Part shown: piece by piece, positions 11,387 through 61,715 of the stretch
Position numbering within the stretch: the stretch's first letter is position 1
Layout of the letters: each line of letters starts with the position of its first letter
Assembly: GCA_050949565.1 (NCBI GenBank)
Contig: JBMNFY010000017.1
Coordinates: 384,001-448,000, forward strand
Length of the DNA stretch: 64,000 bases
Direction of reading: 5' to 3'
Source: Kiritimatiellia bacterium
GTDB taxonomy: Bacteria; Verrucomicrobiota; Kiritimatiellia; RFP12; UBA1067
Made by a program: the position numbers and the translations under genes
The notes under the pieces: model-generated
Database searches by the model: none
The model's input: only the letters and a program-made list of their open reading frames with translations
What the model was told of the DNA's origin: nothing

Positions 11387-11784
11387 GTGTAAAGGGATTC
11401 GGGGTCGAAGTCTGGGGATTCACACACGGAATTGTCTTTCTCATGAAGGGTCTTGGTTGTGGCCGAGAGAATGCGCACAAGCTCATCACAATCGTTGAAC
11501 AAGGGACCAAAGGTAGCGGTCGGGATGTAATCGGTATCATGCAAAAGACGTAGCCAATACCGGGTCTCCAAGGATTCCTTGAAGGCGATTTGAATCTTCG
11601 CCGCAAAGTCCTTTCTGGAGTATGCGCCGCTGGCCTCTTCGATATTGGCACCAATCGAAGTACCGCAACGCAGGATCTGCTTTGACAAAACGTACTCACT
11701 CCGTTCCTTGCACAGCCACTGGAAGAGCCTGACAATCCGAATGGCGAACGCATAGCTCTTCGTCTTTATCGGCGTGTCTCTCAT
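11371..11784 (-). CDS. Four helix bundle protein (TIGR02436 / 23S_rRNA_IVP / Avd-like)
   Basis: KSYAFAIRIVRL...LSKQILRCGTSIGANIEEA...SRKDF..K.QIA.KE..ETRYWL family signature; AAGGAG RBS. Confidence 0.9.
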   Translation of the reverse strand: MRDTPIKTKSYAFAIRIVRLFQWLCKERSEYVLSKQILRCGTSIGANIEEASGAYSRKDFAAKIQIAFKESLETRYWLRLLHDTDYIPTATFGPLFNDCDELVRILSATTKTLHEKDNSVCESPDFDPESLYTTPNS

Positions 11785-15203: not shown

Positions 15204-15566
15204 TTAAGCGGGCGATTGTTTCTTGAGAGTAAGAAGGCTACTGGTCAACAAGCGAAGCATCTCTTCGCAATCTGCGTAAATACCCGAAAAATCGCGGTGT
15301 GCGAGATAGTCGGTTTCATGGAGTAGTTCAAGCCAAAAAGCGGTTTCCGATGCTTCTTTCAAGGCGATCTGGAGCTTCAAAATAAAATCCTTCCTGCTAA
15401 TGGCATATTTAGACTCAGCGATGTTTGCGCCGATACTTGTACCACTGCGCAGAACCTGTTTGGACAAGACGAACTCTCTCTTCTTTTCGGTTAAGAATTG
15501 AAAAAGTCGGACGATTCTAATCGCAAACGCTTTACTTTTTGTCTGAAGTACGCCATCGGTTTTCAT
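15204..15566 (-). CDS. Four helix bundle protein (TIGR02436 / 23S_rRNA_IVP / Avd-like)
   Basis: KSKAFAIRIVRL...LSKQVLRSGTSIGANIAES..AISRKDF..KLQIALKEASET.FWL; visibly more AT-rich than its neighbours. Confidence 0.9.
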   Translation of the reverse strand: MKTDGVLQTKSKAFAIRIVRLFQFLTEKKREFVLSKQVLRSGTSIGANIAESKYAISRKDFILKLQIALKEASETAFWLELLHETDYLAHRDFSGIYADCEEMLRLLTSSLLTLKKQSPA

Positions 15567-22744: not shown

Positions 22745-23510
22745 CGGTAAGGCGGTAAGGCAGTAAGGGGCAGCAGGCAATAAGCTTTGGTGCGCAAAAT
22801 TTGGAATGCGGTGATAAGAGCCGCGCTGTGCGCGGAAGCACAGCCCCGAAGGGGCGGCATCACCTTAGCCCAGGGCAAGCGCAGCGCAGCCCTGGGTCGT
22901 GGAACGAAAGGCATGGTGGCCTGAAAGGTCACTTCAAACTTACAGAGCATTGCTATCGGTATCGCTATCGGAATCGCTATCGCTATCGGTATCGGTATCG
23001 CCGCAGGTCGCATGTCGCGCGTCGTGAGTCAACCTCTCTTATTGCGACCACCCAGTGGTCGCAATGATGAGTGTAAAAGCCCTGCTCTGCTTTTGCCGAA
23101 TCCGATTCCGATCCCGATAGCGATCCCGATCCCGATCTGGATGAGGCTTTAAACCAGAAACAAAGGACAGAAAAACACCGCAGAGACGCAGGGATTTTTT
23201 ACGGGGTGGCGGCGTGACCGCCGCCGGGGAGGGACGAGCGTCTGCTTGCCCGCGGACAAGTGACACTTGTCCCTCCCGGTGCTCCGCAATGAAACCCGAA
23301 ACCATCCTTCCGCACAGCGGAAGGCGGCTCGTGGGGACACTCGCCCTCCATCGTAACTAAGGGACAGGTATTTAGACGCTCTTAAATGGTCGGATGCTCA
23401 AGGAACAGGGGCACGGACATTCCTGTCCGTGGCACGGGTTGGAAAACCCGTGCTCCTTTCGCCGCGCATAACGCGGCGTGGTCAAGCGGACGCTTGACCC
23501 TCCCGGTGCT
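22745..23510. repeat. Composite REP-like repeat mosaic between the TA modules
   Basis: GGCGGTAA 8-mers, module shared with 6590-6645 (inverted), CCCGAAGGGG..AGCCCAGGG..CCCTGGG element, (ATCGST)n, palindrome at 23041, REP doublet at 23408-23456. Confidence 0.85.
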
Positions 23511-23553
23511 TCGCAAGTCCGGCAAATTGTCGTCCCACTCATCCGTGGATGTG

Positions 23554-23811
23554 TCAGCGGTACACTTCACGGCGGTGTCCGATGCGGATGACGACAACGA
23601 CAAGCTCACAGTCACGAATCGCGTAAACAATTCGCCAGTCACCTACGCGGACGCGGTAGAGGCCTTCCACGCCGACCAACTTAACAGCATCAGGTGGTCG
23701 AGGATCGTCCTCAAGAGACTCGAATTTGAGGACAACGCGATGCCGCACGTCGCTGGGCATGTGGTCGAGTACCTTGCACGTCCGTTTATCTAAGCGGACG
23801 GAGAACTTCAC
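23554..23811 (-). CDS. RelE/ParE family toxin
   Basis: LEDDPRPPDAVKLVG...YRVRVGDWRIVY.I.D..LVVVVIRIGHRREVYR. Confidence 0.92.
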   Translation of the reverse strand: MKFSVRLDKRTCKVLDHMPSDVRHRVVLKFESLEDDPRPPDAVKLVGVEGLYRVRVGDWRIVYAIRDCELVVVVIRIGHRREVYR

Positions 23812-24074
23812 GTCTCGGCCACCCGTCCCGCCAGATATTCGTCAAGGGTGTTAAAGGCGGCGGGATTGCGGTCGTACTCCTTGAGCACTTTCGTGGCGGC
23901 TCGAACATCCTTTGCGTCTTCAAGCTTCTGGAGCAGGGCGAGGTCTTCAGTTGAAATTAATGCGGCGACCGGCTTCCCGCGCCGGGCGAGGACAACCCGC
24001 TCGCCTCCGTAAGAAACGCGGTTGATCGCCTCCGCCAGTCTGTTGCGCGCCTCGACAATGCTGAGCGTGGTCAT
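23808..24074 (-). CDS. Phd/YefM family antitoxin
   Basis: LSIVEARNRLAEAINRV...ERVVLARRGKPVAALIS.EDL; GGAG RBS; overlaps the toxin start. Confidence 0.9.
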   Translation of the reverse strand: MTTLSIVEARNRLAEAINRVSYGGERVVLARRGKPVAALISTEDLALLQKLEDAKDVRAATKVLKEYDRNPAAFNTLDEYLAGRVAET

Positions 24075-24104
24075 GGTGTTTTGTCTCCTTCCTTTCATGT
24101 CCAT

Positions 24105-24133
24105 AATGTACACAACCGCGCGTTGCGGGTCAA
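24105..24133 (-). promoter_or_regulatory. Sigma70 promoter of the phd-relE operon
   Basis: TTGACC-N17-TACATT on the minus strand; overlapping imperfect palindrome TGTCCATAATGTACA as a possible antitoxin operator. Confidence 0.65.
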
Positions 24134-24274
24134 TAACTCCTTGCCCATAACTTGAGCGTTAAAAGTTGAACGTTGAGCGTTAAACGTTTTTAACTCAGAA
24201 CGCTGAACGTCGAACGCTGAACTCAGGTACAAAGGGATCGGTATTGACTCGCGACCCGCGACGTGCGACTTGCA

Positions 24275-24630
24275 GCCAACCCTGCCCCCAAAAATCTGCG
24301 TTAAAAATCTAAACCACGAACCACACGAACAACACGAAAGCAGTGCTGTGCCTTTTCGTGTATTCCGTGTATTTCGTGGTTAAACAAACCCGAGCAATGC
24401 CCCTCCAAAATCTGCGTCATCTGTGTAATCTGTGGATAGAAAAAACCGAGCCATGCCCTTCCAAAAACCTTGGCGTTCTTGGCGCCTTGGCGGTTCCAAA
24501 AACCCGAGCAATGCCCCTCCAAAATCTGCGTCATCTGTGTAATCTGTGGATAGAAAACCAAGCAACGCCCCTCAAAAAACCTTCGTGCCCTTCGTGTCTC
24601 CGTGGTTAAAACAACCGAGCCCTGCCCCTG
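24275..24630. repeat. Linker-plus-3x9-mer array, copy 1
   Basis: Linker AAAACC(C)GAGCAATGCCCCTC(C)AAAA with core at 24391, 24447, 24505, 24559, 24616 (period 54-58), alternating with different triplicated 9-mers. Confidence 0.85.
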
Positions 24631-24742
24631 TCACCGCGCGGACTACCCCAGCCTGAAAAAACGCTTCACTTCCCCCCGTTGGATGGTATACACTTGAACC
24701 GTTGATTTTGGATTGTCTCAATCAATAAACAAGGATCACGCC

Positions 24743-27700
24743 ATGAACATTAAAACACGCATCCTTCCCGCACTACTCCTTGCCGCCGTGCTGTTACCCT
24801 TCTCAGTGTACGCCTACACCTACGGTGATTACACCTACACCGTCTATGACGGCAAAGCCACCATCACCGACTTTAATTCATCCTACTCCGGATCCTTGAC
24901 CATTCCCTCCACCCTCGGCGGCTATCCCGTCACATCCATCAGCTACAGAGCCTTCTACAACTGCTATCGCCTCACCTCCGTCACCATCCCTGACAGCGCC
25001 ACAAGAATCGGCGACGAAGCCTTCTCATCCTGCACCTCCCTCACAGCGATCAACGTATCGAAAAACAACCCGGCCTACACAAGTACCAACGGCGTCCTCT
25101 TCAACAAAAACTTGACCACTCTGATCCAGTGCCCCGGTGGCTTCTCTGGATCCTACACCATCCCCGACAGCGTCACATCCATCGGCGACAGCGCCTTCCG
25201 CTCCTGCGACATCCCTCACGGCAATCAACGTATCGGAAAACAATCCGGCCTACACAAGTGCCAACGGTATCCTTTTCAACAAAAGCTTGACCGCTCTAAT
25301 CCAGTGCCCCGGTAGCTTCTCCGGATCCTACACCATTCCAGACAGCGTCACATCCATCGGCGACAGCGCCTTCTACGACTGCACCAAACTCACCTCCGTC
25401 AACATCCCTGACAGCGTCAAAAGCGTCGGCGACTGGGCCTTCGGCTGGTGCGCGTCCCTCGCCTCCGTCACCATCGGGAACAGCGTCACCGACATCGGCG
25501 GCTACGCCTTCTGCTACTGCTCCTCCCTCGCCTCCGTCGTCATCGGAAACAACGTCATCGCCATCGGCGACAGAGCCTTCTACAACTGCGACTCCCTCAC
25601 CTCCGTCAACATTCCCGACAGCGTAACAAACATCGGCGGCTGGGCCTTCGGGAACTGCTATCGCCTCACCTCCGTCACCATCCCTGACAGCGTAACAACC
25701 ATCGGCTACTGGGCCTTCCGCTCATGCACCAACATCACCTCCGTCACCATCGGAAACAGCGTCACAAACATCGGCGACTACGCCTTCGGAGACTGCTCCG
25801 CTTTGCAGTGCGCATATTTTAAAGGCAATGCTCCCTCTAGAGGTTACGATGTTTTTTTAAGATCCACTCAAACGACCGTCTACCGGCTACCTTATGCCAT
25901 AGGCTGGCCGACTGTGCCCAACTCTTGGTGTGGTCGACCGACTGCGTATTGGACTTGGCCGGTTACTGTGATGTTTGACCCGCTGGGGGGAGCAGTAGAT
26001 CCGTCAAACGCAACCATGAGCTACGGTTTCGCCTACGGTGTCTTGCCTGTACCGATGCTGGCCGGACATTTCTTCGGGGGCTGGTGGACCGAAGCCGGCG
26101 GCACGGGAACGCAGGTGACAGACACGACTTTAGTGACAACAGCGTCAGACCACACCCTCTATGCCAAATGGATCAACCCATACGCTGTCGGGAACGGCGA
26201 AAACGCCGTGCCGGTCGGCAAGGTCACGGCGGCTTGTCCATCCAGCTTGGCGGGGTCGGTTTGTTGGACGACGGCGACATGGCGGGGCTCGAATGGAGCG
26301 TGACCGGACGGGGCGTGCTGTCCTTTGACTGGAAGGTGTCGAGCGAGGCGGATTGGGATGTGCTGCGGTTCTACGAGGTCGGAACCGGAGAAACGAATGT
26401 GATCTCCGGCACGGGCGCGGAGTGGACGCGGATCACGCGGGTCGTGGAAGCGGACTCGCCGCACACGTTCCGCTGGGAATATGAGAAAGATCCGCATGGC
26501 GACTATGTCGGTGATGACTGCGGCTGGATCGATGCGTTCGACTGGGCGCCTTTCTTTGATCTGACCGTTAACGGCGGCACGGGCGGCGGCACTTACACCA
26601 ACGGCACAATCGTGACCGTCTCGGCGGACACACCCCCCGCTCACTACCTGTTTGATGTGTGGACAGGAGACACCGGCGCCGTAGCGAACGTACACGCGGC
26701 GACCACCACCCTGACCATGCCGGCGACGAACGCCGTGATAACGGCGACGTACAAGCCGATCCTCTATCCGGTCGAAGTCGTTGGCGGCCAGGGCAGCGGC
26801 GGCTACGCCTACGGCTCCACGGTGACGCTGAGCGCGGATATACCGGAAGGCAAGCGCTTCTACCGCTGGGCGGGCGACACGGCAAACATTGCCGACCTCA
26901 ACGCGCCGACGACCACGGTGTATTTCGCAGGTGAGTCGCTGGCGGTGACCTCGACCTATTGCGTACCGCTGACCGTGACGCAGGGCACGGGCAGCGGATG
27001 GTACCCCGAGGGAGCGACCGCCGTTGTGAAGGCCGACCCCAATCCGATGTGGATGGAGTTCGCAGGATGGATCGGCGACGGCGCAGGCCAAGTGGAAAAC
27101 GTCTTTCTGGCGGACACGACAATGGTGATCCCGACGCGGCCTTCCGCATTGACCGCCACCTACACCGACTCGGTGGCGCGCGTGGCGGGCTGTTACGGGC
27201 GCGCGTTCACGCGCTCGGGCGTGGAAGGCGGCATTTCGACGGACTTTGCGGCAGGCTCTCCCTCCGGCACGCCAGCAGTCAAGCTGGGCGGGGCGGGTGT
27301 GGTTCCGGACAACGGGTTTGCGGCCTTTGAAACCTCGGTTTTCGGCAGCGGAACCGTCACGTTCTGGTGGCGGGTTTCGAGCGAACGCGATGCCGACTAC
27401 TTGAAGTTTCTCGTGGACGGCACGCAGGTCGCCGCCCTTTCTGGAACGAAAGGTCCATGGACGCAGGTTTCGCAACGGATCGAGGGCGCGGGCGCATCCC
27501 ATGTTTTGCGCTGGGAATACGCGAAAAACGATTCCTTCGCCAGCAGTACCGATGCGGGCTGGGTGGACGACATCGTTTGGACGGGAGACATTCCCGAACC
27601 GGTGCTCTCGCCCGACATTCAAGAGACGGCCTTCACCAACGGGGTGTTCGGCATCCGTTTCCTGGGCGAACGCGGCATTCCCTACGCGGTCTACAGCAAC

Positions 27701-27847
27701 GCCACGCTCAACGCGGACGGCTGGGCGTTCATGCAGACCGTGACGCAGGAAGAGGGAGAAACCAACGGCGTGTTCCGTTTCGGCACGGTTATTCTCCCGC
27801 CCGTCGGCCAGCGCTCCGGCTTCTACCGCATCAAGAGCGGGCCTTGA
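24743..27847 (+). CDS. BspA-type leucine-rich-repeat surface protein with InlB-B/Flg_new repeats (two frameshifts)
   Basis: Signal peptide; TpLRR 'SVTIPDSVTSIGDSAF..C..L' repeats; FGGWWTEAGGTG..LYAKW repeat. Extra G near 25208 (by comparison with the sister repeat) and a missing base near 26222 join ORFs 24713-25315, 25137-26303 and 26084-27847. Confidence 0.8.
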
Positions 27848-59779: not shown

Positions 59780-59976
59780 TTTACCATGAAACATGAAACT
59801 TCATGAAAATTAGAGACTCCCCTTGGCGTTCTTGGCGCCTTGGCGGTTCAAAAAAGCCGAGCCATGCCATCCCAAAATAGTCTGTGTCCATCCGTGGATA
59901 AAAAAACCGCGCAATGCCCTCAAAAAAGCTCTGTGCCCTTTGTGTTCTCTGTGATCCAAAAAACCCGAGCAGTGCT
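59780..59976. repeat. Linker-plus-3x9-mer array, copy 2
   Basis: Linker core at 59858, 59908, 59966; module CTTGGCGTTCTTGGCGCCTTGGCGGTT identical to the one at ~24469. Confidence 0.8.
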
Positions 59977-59977
59977 T

Positions 59978-61715
59978 TTACCTCAGCATGAAAACCATGC
60001 CGTCAGAGAAATAGAGCCAGACCGTGCCGTTTCCCGCCCTCTGCAGATGCCAGCGCTCGTCCGGCAAGTTGGACCTGCTGAACATGCCCGTCGTCTGCGC
60101 GGAGAGCTGAGCGACCGCGTAGCGTTTTCTCCGGCTGAGTTGCGTCACATCCACCACATGCAACGCCACACTGGAGATATCGACATCCCCGTTCAGGGTG
60201 AGCGTGTCACTGGCGCCCTCTGCCGTCACGTCCAGCAGGTACACACCCTCCAAGAGGGCACCCTGACCGATTGTGATTAACTGGGTGCCGATGGACGGCG
60301 TGCCGCCCGGCGAGAACTCCGTGTGGAGCGTCCCGTTCACCACAGGCCCACTGCCACTGACCGTATTGGTCACCGTGAACGCACCGAGATCAAGCGTCCC
60401 CGCCTCCTCCACGGCAATGGCGCTGCCGGGCAACAGGGCGTCGACGCACCCGAACTTCAGCGTGCCACCGCTGACCGTCGTGCCTCCCGTGAAGGTGCCC
60501 GCGCCGCCCAGTGTCAATGTGCCGTTACCGAGCTTGACCAACCCTCCGCTGATGTTCTCGGCCAGCGTGACCTGCCCCACGACCGCAGGCGTGAGGCACC
60601 CCCCGCCACGCAATGTCACATTCAACTGATCCCCGGCACCGTAACCGCTGCCGGCGGAGGTCACGAGAATGTTCGTCACCTGACCGCAGAGGGGACTCTC
60701 CGGCTCCAGGTCAACCAGCGCGATGGCCGTCGCGCCGATACCCGCCCCGCCGCTGACCAGTACAGCCGGCGCGCCGATGTAGCCCGTGCCCCGGATACGA
60801 GAGCAATGGCGCTCACGCCGTAACCCTCGGGTGCGACCAACGGCTGATTGAGCGTGACAGTGTACCCGCCCGTGTCGATCCGTGCGCCGCCCGCACGCAC
60901 ATAGGCGGCCGTCAACCCCTCTATCTGCATGGTGTTTGCTGCGGCCTTGAGCAGCCCACCGTTGAAGTTGAAGTGACTAGGCGTTGTGGTGTTCGGCGTG
61001 TTGTTGCCGAACAATGCATCCGCCCTATGAAGCGTCAATTCGCCGGCATTCAGGTTCACCGCGCCGAGGATATTGGTTCCACCGCGTGCAAGGTTGATCC
61101 TCTTCTGGATCACTGAACCGCCGCGGTCAAACATCTTAGCGCCGGATCCCAGAAGATTGACTTGGGCGGTGATCCTGTGGCCGTTGGCGTATCCGAGCAG
61201 CACTTCGCCACCTCTGGTGTCGCCGCCGCCGTACGAGCCGCCGAAAATATTCAGCACGCCCACCTCCCTGCTCCACGCGACCAGCAGGCACCAACCGTCC
61301 ACCGTGACCTTGCCCCCAAACAGGTCTATCACACCGACACTGCCGTCACCGAGCGCGCCGGGACCGCCGACCGCGATCTCACCGCTGCACAACTCACCGC
61401 CGGTAATGCGGTGATAACCGTAACCGCCGAGATTACCCACCACATGGAAGGCATCGGCCGACACACCCGTGCTGACATTGAGCACACCCGAATGCTGAAT
61501 GATCGCGCCGGAAGCACCGAGCCCGTTGCCGACATGCAACTTTCTGTTCGCCTCTCCAGGCAACGCCTGAACGTTCAACCCGCCATCCAACACCATCACG
61601 CAACGGTCGCCGGCATTCGTGCCCACCCGGATGTTGCCGACGCCGGTCAACTGCGACGCACCGTTGACCCTGACTGTGACCGGCGAGCCGCCGCCCAAAA
61701 TGCCGACCCTGATTC
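59978..61715 (-). pseudogene. 5'-truncated, frameshifted autotransporter-associated beta-strand repeat protein
   Basis: GGLVKLGNGTLTL.G..TFTGGTTV..GTL repeat; missing G at 60789-60792; no start or signal peptide, sequence turns into an opposite-strand AraC fragment near 61710. Confidence 0.7.

Follow-up and report, generated by a model that had tools for sequence, protein, structure and literature searches.

A mosaic intergenic array in a Kiritimatiellia genome built of repeat modules related to the arms of GxxExxY nuclease cassettes

Architecture of the array

The window analysed here, a stretch of 64,000 nt (G000:C17:384001-448000, where G000 is the Kiritimatiellia genome under study), contains a 670-nt spacer that separates a toxin-antitoxin pair from a divergently transcribed leucine-rich-repeat gene and is filled with short repeats. 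Within it, at 24274-24629, lies an array of five direct modules of three 9-mers each, one inverted, hairpin-forming module and five linkers. We favour, with moderate confidence, the reading that this array is a gene-less stack of end stubs of GxxExxY-nuclease cassettes, reshuffled by recombination at common short repeats. The original prediction, made from the sequence alone, had likened the locus to an array of clustered regularly interspaced short palindromic repeats (CRISPR). The layout that it described, namely a linker recurring every 54-58 bp, 3x9-nt modules of different families and an inverted module pairing with the next one, is indeed all found in the sequence. The linkers start at 24383, 24439, 24497, 24551 and 24608 (spacings of 56, 58, 54 and 57 nt), and their copies are 77-100% identical to the first linker over 22 nt. 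The array is composed as follows.

24274-24307, plus strand: degenerate first unit (the sixth unit of the array), linker-like AGCCAACCCTGCCCCCAAAAA and then a single CTGCGTTAAA unit
24312-24381: gene-less hairpin, made of the inverted module (24312-24338), a loop (24339-24354) with core-like AGCAGTGC..GCC (24339-24352), and module 1
24355-24381: module 1, TTCGTG/TCCGTG family, TTCGTGTAT-TCCGTGTAT-TTCGTGGTT
24383-24437, plus strand: unit 2, linker 1 (core CCGAGCAATGCC, 24390-24401) and module 2, ATCTGCGTC-ATCTGTGTA-ATCTGTGGAT (24410-24437)
24438-24495, plus strand: unit 3, linker 2 (core 24446-24457) and module 3, CTTGGCG family, CTTGGCGTT-CTTGGCGCC-TTGGCGGTT (24469-24495)
24496-24551, plus strand: unit 4, linker 3 (core 24504-24515) and module 4, ATCTGCGTC-ATCTGTGTA-ATCTGTGGAT (24524-24551)
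24552-24607, plus strand: unit 5, linker 4 (degenerate core CCAAGCAACGCC, 24558-24569) and module 5, CTTCGTG/TCCGTG family, CTTCGTGCC-CTTCGTGTC-TCCGTGGTT (24581-24607)
24608-24629, plus strand: terminal half-linker, core CCGAGCCCTGCC (24615-24626), with a module-free 3' side

Each of the six modules, the inverted one included, measures 3x9 nt, that is, about three tandem 8-10-nt units, as in the cassette arms described below. Modules 2 and 4 are identical; the 71-nt direct repeat underlying them is 93% identical, with complete identity across linker core, head and module. The hairpin at 24312-24381 has 28-nt arms, 82% complementary, and a 14-nt loop. As single-stranded DNA it folds at -21.3 kcal/mol (z = -5.6), and none of 200 shuffles folds as well. 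The direct units show no structure beyond shuffled controls on either strand (minus strand z = 0.0), and the plus-strand RNA of the direct part folds worse than shuffles (z = +1.7; 193 of 200 shuffles at least as stable). At a permissive threshold, the sole Rfam match within 23000-26000 is at chance level and outside the array, and no significant Pfam match was obtained with the open reading frames (ORFs) that span the array.

The linker core and the exchange of whole units

Searching for the linker across the genome and its relatives, a check proposed with the original prediction, revealed a large population of similar sequences. Against the G000 assembly (4.66 Mb, 21 contigs, 60% GC, 92% complete), a 30-nt linker profile gave 195 matches at E <= 1 (96 at E <= 0.01) distributed over 109 loci, most of which (86) contain just one linker; at E <= 1 the profile detects three of the five linkers of the array itself. 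Nearly all matches have co-oriented modules on both sides, and several belong to tandem arrays of a higher order, whose period ranges from 120 to 729 bp. Triplet modules were searched for with nine cores (TCTGCG, TCTGTG, TTCGTG, TTGGCG, TCCGTG, TTCATG, TTCGCG, TTTGTG and TTTGCG), the reversed sequence serving as control. The search returned 867 modules (866 once overlaps are merged) at 371 loci, 599 of the 866 having no adjacent linker, and the control returned 38. G000 contains 148 exact copies of the core CCGAGC[AC]NTGCC (136 of these within linker matches) and nine of the reversed pattern. Given these differences from the reversed controls, the array pattern is more than a product of chance. 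The strict linker pattern is restricted to three of the 41 genomes searched (G000, G004 and G002), all of one genus; four further members of that genus, G001, G003, G005 and G006 (81-89% complete), gave no match to it. A second array is present in the window at 59823-59990, with linker matches at 59850, 59900 and 59958 and two detector-called triplet modules of CTTGGCG and TCTGTG type.

The alignment of 132 distinct junctions clarified the anatomy of the linker. The A-rich columns 1-7 vary in step with the module upstream, and columns 20-30, which hold a C run and an A run, do so with the module downstream. Columns 8-19, CCGAGC-M-N-TGCC, are essentially invariant and covary with neither neighbour. 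The linker is accordingly made of three parts: a tail tied to the preceding module, an invariant core and a head tied to the following module. Only the two central positions of the core vary (CA 56, AA 35, AC 19, AG 18 and others). Since modules of the same family flank just 9 of the 132 junctions and random pairing predicts 15.6, the mixture of families in the array at 24274-24629 represents the norm and implies no curated order. At some loci (e.g. C17:1203241, C10:320917 and C16:68435) the core precedes non-triplet sequence, which in some cases is a palindrome, TTGCGACCAC...GTGGTCGCAA, like those of repetitive extragenic palindromic (REP) sequences and in others a terminator-like hairpin, GAGCGTTGAA..TTCAACTGCTCTTTTT. 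Two simple explanations of the core were considered and rejected. It might be the remnant of a ribosome-binding site and start codon (consensus reverse complement GGGGGGCATGG), but the 'ATG' falls on the two variable positions, so that no start codon is conserved. A 2-nt target-site duplication at the central dinucleotide is at odds with the array, where the dinucleotides on either side of units differ (AA/CA, CA/AA, AA/AA, AA/CC).

Comparisons between loci and between genomes revealed differences in steps of whole units. An unlinked paralogous array, C17:1015561-1015960, is identical to the array at 24274-24629 over module 1 with its tail and over the head with module 3; it is without one 56-nt ATCTG unit (unit 2, 24383-24437), and both breakpoints are inside the core. 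Between G000 and its sister genome G004, whose flanks are 92-99% identical, one locus shows an indel of 115 nt, equal to exactly two units, with the 13-nt repeat CACACGAAGGCAC at its borders and its breakpoints inside modules. At another locus G000 carries a 135-nt duplication of three units that is absent from G004. Orthologous spacers in G004 (one in G002) contain wholly different module sets, at times with the linker alone in common. In G000 itself, several near-duplicate contigs with indels in repeat blocks (C12/C16, 99.5% over 35 kb; C14/C15; the C13/C17 end; C5/C18) look like alternative strain haplotypes; they differ in that 372 bp are duplicated, a block of 331 bp is present or missing and a heptamer run is expanded by 58 bp. 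A repeat of ~1.68 kb at C12:46558-48238 and at least nine other places in G000 (98-99% identity on C6, C7, C10, C17 and C20) is probably an insertion sequence.

At least 15 metagenomes contain half or more of the sampled words of this stretch of DNA. For the array itself, four sequencing runs were compared in the form of Logan contigs, which break at repeats, and no contig spans the array. DNA contigs from the metagenomes of 2016 and 2021 (X11 and X13) reproduce 24244-24396 and 24522-24980 (X11) and 24249-24384 and 24414-24980 (X13) with 0-1 differences, the uncovered gaps in the array being 24397-24521 in X11 and 24385-24413 in X13; the recovered array pieces display no variation in either metagenome. 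Contig joints such as 24294 to 24440 were discarded as array variants, since their sequence belongs to other G000 loci. The idea that the array is an ordered collection built up stepwise is not supported by the data: families pair at near-random frequency, the metagenome pieces are unchanged, and breakpoints fall in whichever short repeat is common. Neither module order nor the metagenome pieces, nor the paralog and sister-genome comparisons, gave any evidence of polar acquisition.

Module families, cassette arms and the surrounding spacer

In a complete cassette, a gene for a PD-(D/E)XK protein of ~125 residues (PF13366, GxxExxY) is bracketed by a pair of inverted arms, and about three 9-nt units make up each arm. 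In G000, PF13366 matches are found at six loci, one of them apparently split, along with nine matches above the family cut-off to the four-helix-bundle family PF05635. Nearly all of these genes are bracketed by inverted tandem-oligomer arms, as in the cassette at C17:565153 (AACCATGAAACACATGAAACTTCATGAAA ... gene ... TTTCATGAAGTTTCATGTGTTTCATGGTT), the arm period being 8-10 for GxxExxY and ~7-8 for four-helix-bundle genes (by eye). Within the bacterial family, PF13366 is present in 47 of the 61 genomes searched, and inverted arms with a period of 8-10 and a length of 16 nt or more are seen at 20 of the 35 loci inspected (30 retrieved ones, including one from G000, and five further G000 loci).

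The modules had been proposed to be end sequences of several families of small-nuclease cassettes, and the module families do match the flanks of PF13366 genes. The narrower statement that such 9-mer triplets flank GxxExxY genes holds to a different degree for each module. It holds in full for module 1, whose family forms a complete inverted arm pair around the GxxExxY gene of locus L011. For module 5 it holds in part: a CTTCGTG-type right arm lies 3' of the GxxExxY gene in L022, a family match made by eye, the scored inverted match being 10 nt long. The same is true of modules 2 and 4, for which an ATCTGCG..GGAT module is located ~100 nt 5' of the gene in L032 and ATCCGCAG abuts that gene (again a match by eye; the arm-finder scored no inverted pair at L032), and for which four loci in other phyla, given below, add to the evidence. 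For module 3 only near relatives, ATTGGCG/ATTCGCG, serve as arms, in L016 and L018.

The link between arms and array units comes from a full cassette at C15:17358, which is preceded by eight left-arm stubs and followed by ~17 right-arm stubs. Its left stubs have the spacer GGGGGGCATTGCTACGG, which is similar on the one hand to the leader that the cassette carries immediately inside its left arm (GGGTTGCTACG) and on the other to the genome-wide linker in reverse complement. On the strength of this resemblance we infer that each array unit is a cassette end stub, so that the stubs would ultimately derive from cassettes. In L027 (1492-1896, minus strand; the G000:C17:1382786 region) the longest GxxExxY ORF starts inside the left arm, which would then encode MEPQNTLNTRKNF, and the gene follows an ORF that, judging by its translation, resembles a type I restriction S-subunit. 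No solved structure of a GxxExxY protein was found by sequence. The available part of PMC3424549 has a table in which the function of PF13366 is entered as 'Unknown', with multiple transfers.

The ATCTG family is widely distributed outside the genus. When the ATCTGYG 28-nt pattern of modules 2 and 4 was scanned against a collection of species-representative genomes, at least 120 stretches in more than 12 phyla were retrieved; labels among the matches listed include Planctomycetota, Verrucomicrobiota, Chloroflexota, Acidobacteriota, Cyanobacteria, Desulfobacterota, Nitrospirota and Proteobacteria, and also two metagenome-assembled genomes (MAGs) labelled archaea. We analysed 80 of these loci, containing 94 modules. 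An inverted partner lies at most 700 nt away for 41 of the 94, which gives 30 distinct hairpins whose loops mostly measure 20-100 nt, and four loci (L042, L085, L099 and L113) have a GxxExxY ORF no more than 250 nt from an ATCTG module. A strand-specific RNA hairpin was considered for these structures and not adopted, as 28 G.U against 18 A.C mismatches amount to no clear bias. The G000 linker is present in none of the 80 loci. Two loci, L102 (a Chloroflexota MAG) and L106 (a WOR-3 MAG), hold direct ATCTG-module arrays with different, lineage-specific spacers of ~20 nt; the layout of an arm followed by a constant spacer therefore recurs in other phyla with different spacers.

The rest of the spacer and its neighbours comprise the following features.

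23557-23811, minus strand: ParE toxin gene, a neighbour outside the element
23811-24074, minus strand: Phd/YefM antitoxin gene, a neighbour outside the element
24133-24105, minus strand: promoter-like site
24117-24135 / 24242-24260: arms of an outer inverted repeat of CGCGAC-type 8-mer units (19-nt arms, 84% complementary), enclosing the heptamer inverted repeat in the same mosaic spacer
24150-24222: inverted tandem heptamers of TTGAACG / CGTTCAA type (period 7, 9.9 copies)
24743-25312, plus strand: beginning of a BspA-type leucine-rich-repeat (LRR_5) gene whose transcription leads away from the array, a neighbour outside the element

The stretch 24117-24629 is thus a patchwork in which, besides the array, a heptamer inverted repeat is nested inside an inverted repeat of the 8-mer type. 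The heptamer segment is seen again across the genus and the family and folds just weakly better than shuffles (z = -1.8). Arms in its style flank four-helix-bundle genes in G000; the same heptamers recur, for example, at window 11464-11772. The gene there and another at 15243-15542, both on the minus strand, belong to PF05635 (the 23S-rRNA-IVS-protein family) and are situated between operon genes, their arms being inverted tandem heptamers/octamers of GGAGTTA/TCCTAAC type and of AATAGTGAAT type. In synteny comparisons with relatives the toxin-antitoxin genes alone match, at 72-73%, in G003, G005 and G007. The LRR_5 region (24713-27847) is covered by three overlapping ORFs (24713-25315, 25137-26303 and 26084-27847) and contains tandem repeats of 69, 138, 175 and 207 bp; the gene may be frameshifted, or its repeats may have been mis-assembled.

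Origin of the array and competing explanations

Each 54-58-nt unit of the array consists of a short head (TGCC followed by a run of C/A), a single arm and an A-rich tail ending in CCGAGC. Units meet at the invariant 12-nt core, which resembles a stretch immediately internal to the left arm in one full G000 cassette. Spread over the 109 loci, they are gained, lost and exchanged in whole-unit steps, most likely through homology-driven recombination or slippage between the common core and similar modules, giving rise to mixed arrays; a dedicated enzyme would probably not be required for such movement.

A number of observations do not sit easily with this reading. The direct units have no partner arm and hence are not simply hairpin cassettes minus the gene. 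G000, at 92% completeness, has no GxxExxY gene bearing ATCTG or CTTGGCG arms. In other phyla just 5 of the 94 ATCTG modules adjoin a GxxExxY ORF, which means that gene-less copies far outnumber gene-bearing ones, as they do in G000. A near-invariant 12-nt core with a free centre in 132 contexts looks like the outcome of constraint or of a joining reaction, not of decay. Moreover, linker loci between same-direction genes oppose those genes 46 times and agree with them 13 times, according to rough gene calls made for this analysis, and such a bias suggests selection or a transcription-linked mechanism. The same tendency is seen for all module loci (83 against gene direction and 48 along it, p = 0.003). 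A replication-strand bias was rejected as its cause: on the negative-skew part of C17, linker loci number 28 on the plus and 16 on the minus strand, too weak a difference. Finally, the RNA libraries of one study yielded contigs identical to 24408-24483 and 24473-24529, at a depth like that of the flanking genes, and array transcription is therefore possible; these data are strandless, and DNA carry-over could also produce them. Stretches without RNA cover (24634-24680 in X15; beyond 24633 in X16) carry no weight.

Some of these observations would be accommodated by a miniature integron-like system, in which a site-specific recombinase crosses over at the 12-nt core and moves single head-arm-tail units in and out, so that arrays are actively built. 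Integron arrays consist of different units placed head to tail, each bounded by a common recombination-site-like sequence (attC). The array at 24274-24629 shares with them the head-to-tail arrangement and a one-unit difference from its paralog that breaks inside the common core; its units differ in being 56 nt long and gene-free, with a core devoid of attC-type inverted structure. A recombinase would explain why the core is invariant save for two central positions and indifferent to both neighbours, why C17:1015561-1015960 differs by one clean unit and why the two fully identical ATCTG units each sit exactly at the core. A linker confined to one genus would likewise fit a lineage-specific enzyme. 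However, the other unit-scale events break within modules, at the 13-nt CACACGAAGGCAC repeat, or are multi-unit tandem duplications, deletion between adjacent 12-nt direct repeats accounts equally well for the paralog difference, and no recombinase was identified, though no integrase search was made. We consider this explanation doubtful. Still less probable is its bolder extension, in which the core is the crossover site of a lineage-specific system that captures single GxxExxY cassette arms into arrays as decoys or as an immunity record; if true, capture at the core would amount to a non-CRISPR cataloguing of mobile-element ends. A role for the array in the cell need not involve capture: its C-rich, unstructured plus strand might act as a functional transcript or DNA platform, either as a protein sponge (e.g. 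a GxxExxY decoy) or as a region where Rho loads and brings antisense or read-through transcription to an end. The base composition (a plus strand rich in C and poor in G, with C/G = 1.65 for the array and 1.72 for all units together), the poor folding of the plus-strand RNA, the mainly antisense placement of units and the RNA-library contigs at near-flank depth would all agree with such a role. On the other hand, the RNA data lack strand, transcript ends and a carry-over control, the array lies between divergent genes and upstream of both, and orthologous spacers of the sister genome contain different modules or none, leaving no conserved locus-specific role. We regard a platform as unlikely, slightly more so than the recombinase, and suppose that the array probably has no host function. 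The decoy or guide-RNA role put forward in the original prediction receives no support either, given direct units that are unstructured relative to shuffles and RNA contigs without strand or carry-over control.

That the array is adaptive in the manner of CRISPR, storing the ends of invading cassettes in order and giving rise to guide RNAs, seems to us highly improbable. What speaks for it is the layout alone: a constant segment of ~26-30 nt alternates with a variable one of ~27 nt, and linker-like sequence is present at both array ends. Against this, the linker recurs at 109 loci, mostly as a single copy, and its further copies in the array are diverged (77-91% identity to the first) rather than near-identical. 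The 'spacers' are multicopy repeat families (866 copies), one of which appears twice in the array as modules 2 and 4, and the linker has no conserved repeat structure, hairpin or Rfam match. The statement that cas genes are absent stands for the window's contig as regards Cas1 (PF01867), the sole cas family searched; it does not stand for the genome, as Cas1 matches on C8 and C6. About 4 kb from the strong C8 match there is a small array (2.5 copies) whose genuine CRISPR repeat, GTCGCGCCCC...ATTGAAAC, is unrelated to the linker. We find it equally hard to believe that the array is a plain 56-58-nt minisatellite diverged by point mutation, even though Tandem Repeats Finder reports a period of 58, 3.4 copies and 68% matches. 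The three cores of a module are of one type or one base apart and the modules differ from each other (TTGGCG three times in one, TTCGTG/TCCGTG three times in another), so that drift would have to produce parallel changes. Descent of all modules from one tandem unit had been named as the finding that would overturn the original prediction; instead, the three cores of each module change together, the families occur independently at many loci and in other phyla, and a two-unit block is common to an unlinked locus.

Known dispersed repeats offer partial parallels. Enterobacterial bacterial interspersed mosaic elements (BIMEs) are mosaic intergenic clusters in which variable palindromic units of alternating orientation are joined by a few conserved linker motifs. 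The likeness lies in variable repeat units combined with a small set of conserved linkers and scattered between genes; the units described here are non-palindromic, run head to tail and belong to at least five sequence families that double as cassette arms. A second parallel is provided by REP sequences, their hairpin-forming doublets (REPINs) and the associated RAYT transposases (Bertels & Rainey 2011, PMC3116915; PMC3337134). Judged by the available parts of these two sources, the systems have in common short high-copy intergenic repeats, inverted doublets forming hairpins (here 24312-24381), a small gene with inverted copies of these repeats on both sides and a large majority of gene-less copies. 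By the same sources they differ in the flanked gene, here PD-(D/E)XK GxxExxY (PF13366) and not an HUH Y1 transposase, and in the arms, here three tandem 9-mers without a palindrome, most array units being direct and unstructured. The two-REP hairpin description fits 24312-24381, and the five direct units have no such structure. G000 has seven matches to PF01797, four above the family cut-off. A link to RAYTs was not upheld by the only such gene inspected, a 164-aa RAYT-like gene at C4:30024 flanked by an unrelated repeat. In the region G000:C4:29790-30330, this Y1_Tnp gene (164-aa frame) and the inverted repeat GGGGTCGTAGTTTGACATTAGACAT that flanks it make up a REP-type system of their own. 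The element at 24150-24222 is comparable to the heptamer repeats of Xanthomonas and Nostoc, in which tandem 7-nt units of variable copy number abound between genes, close to gene ends, and are often transcribed (Rehm et al. 2015, PMC4692102). The available text of that paper reads the repeats as G-quadruplex formers, with no tie to flanked genes or 9-mer triplets.

Dispersed mosaic repeats are familiar in bacteria; here the building blocks appear to be arms of a PD-(D/E)XK-nuclease cassette, and one 28-nt arm family is conserved in more than 12 phyla, MAGs labelled archaeal included. In the searchable literature, supplementary files aside, we found no description of a link between GxxExxY/PF13366 and repeats, PF13366 appearing there as a table entry and an incidental mention. 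Arrays of such units should not be annotated as CRISPR. The lineage-specific 12-nt junction core, together with whole-unit differences between paralogous arrays, offers a way to test a dedicated enzyme against plain recombination. Such arrays also account for the fast turnover of intergenic sequence between genomes whose flanking genes are 92-99% identical.

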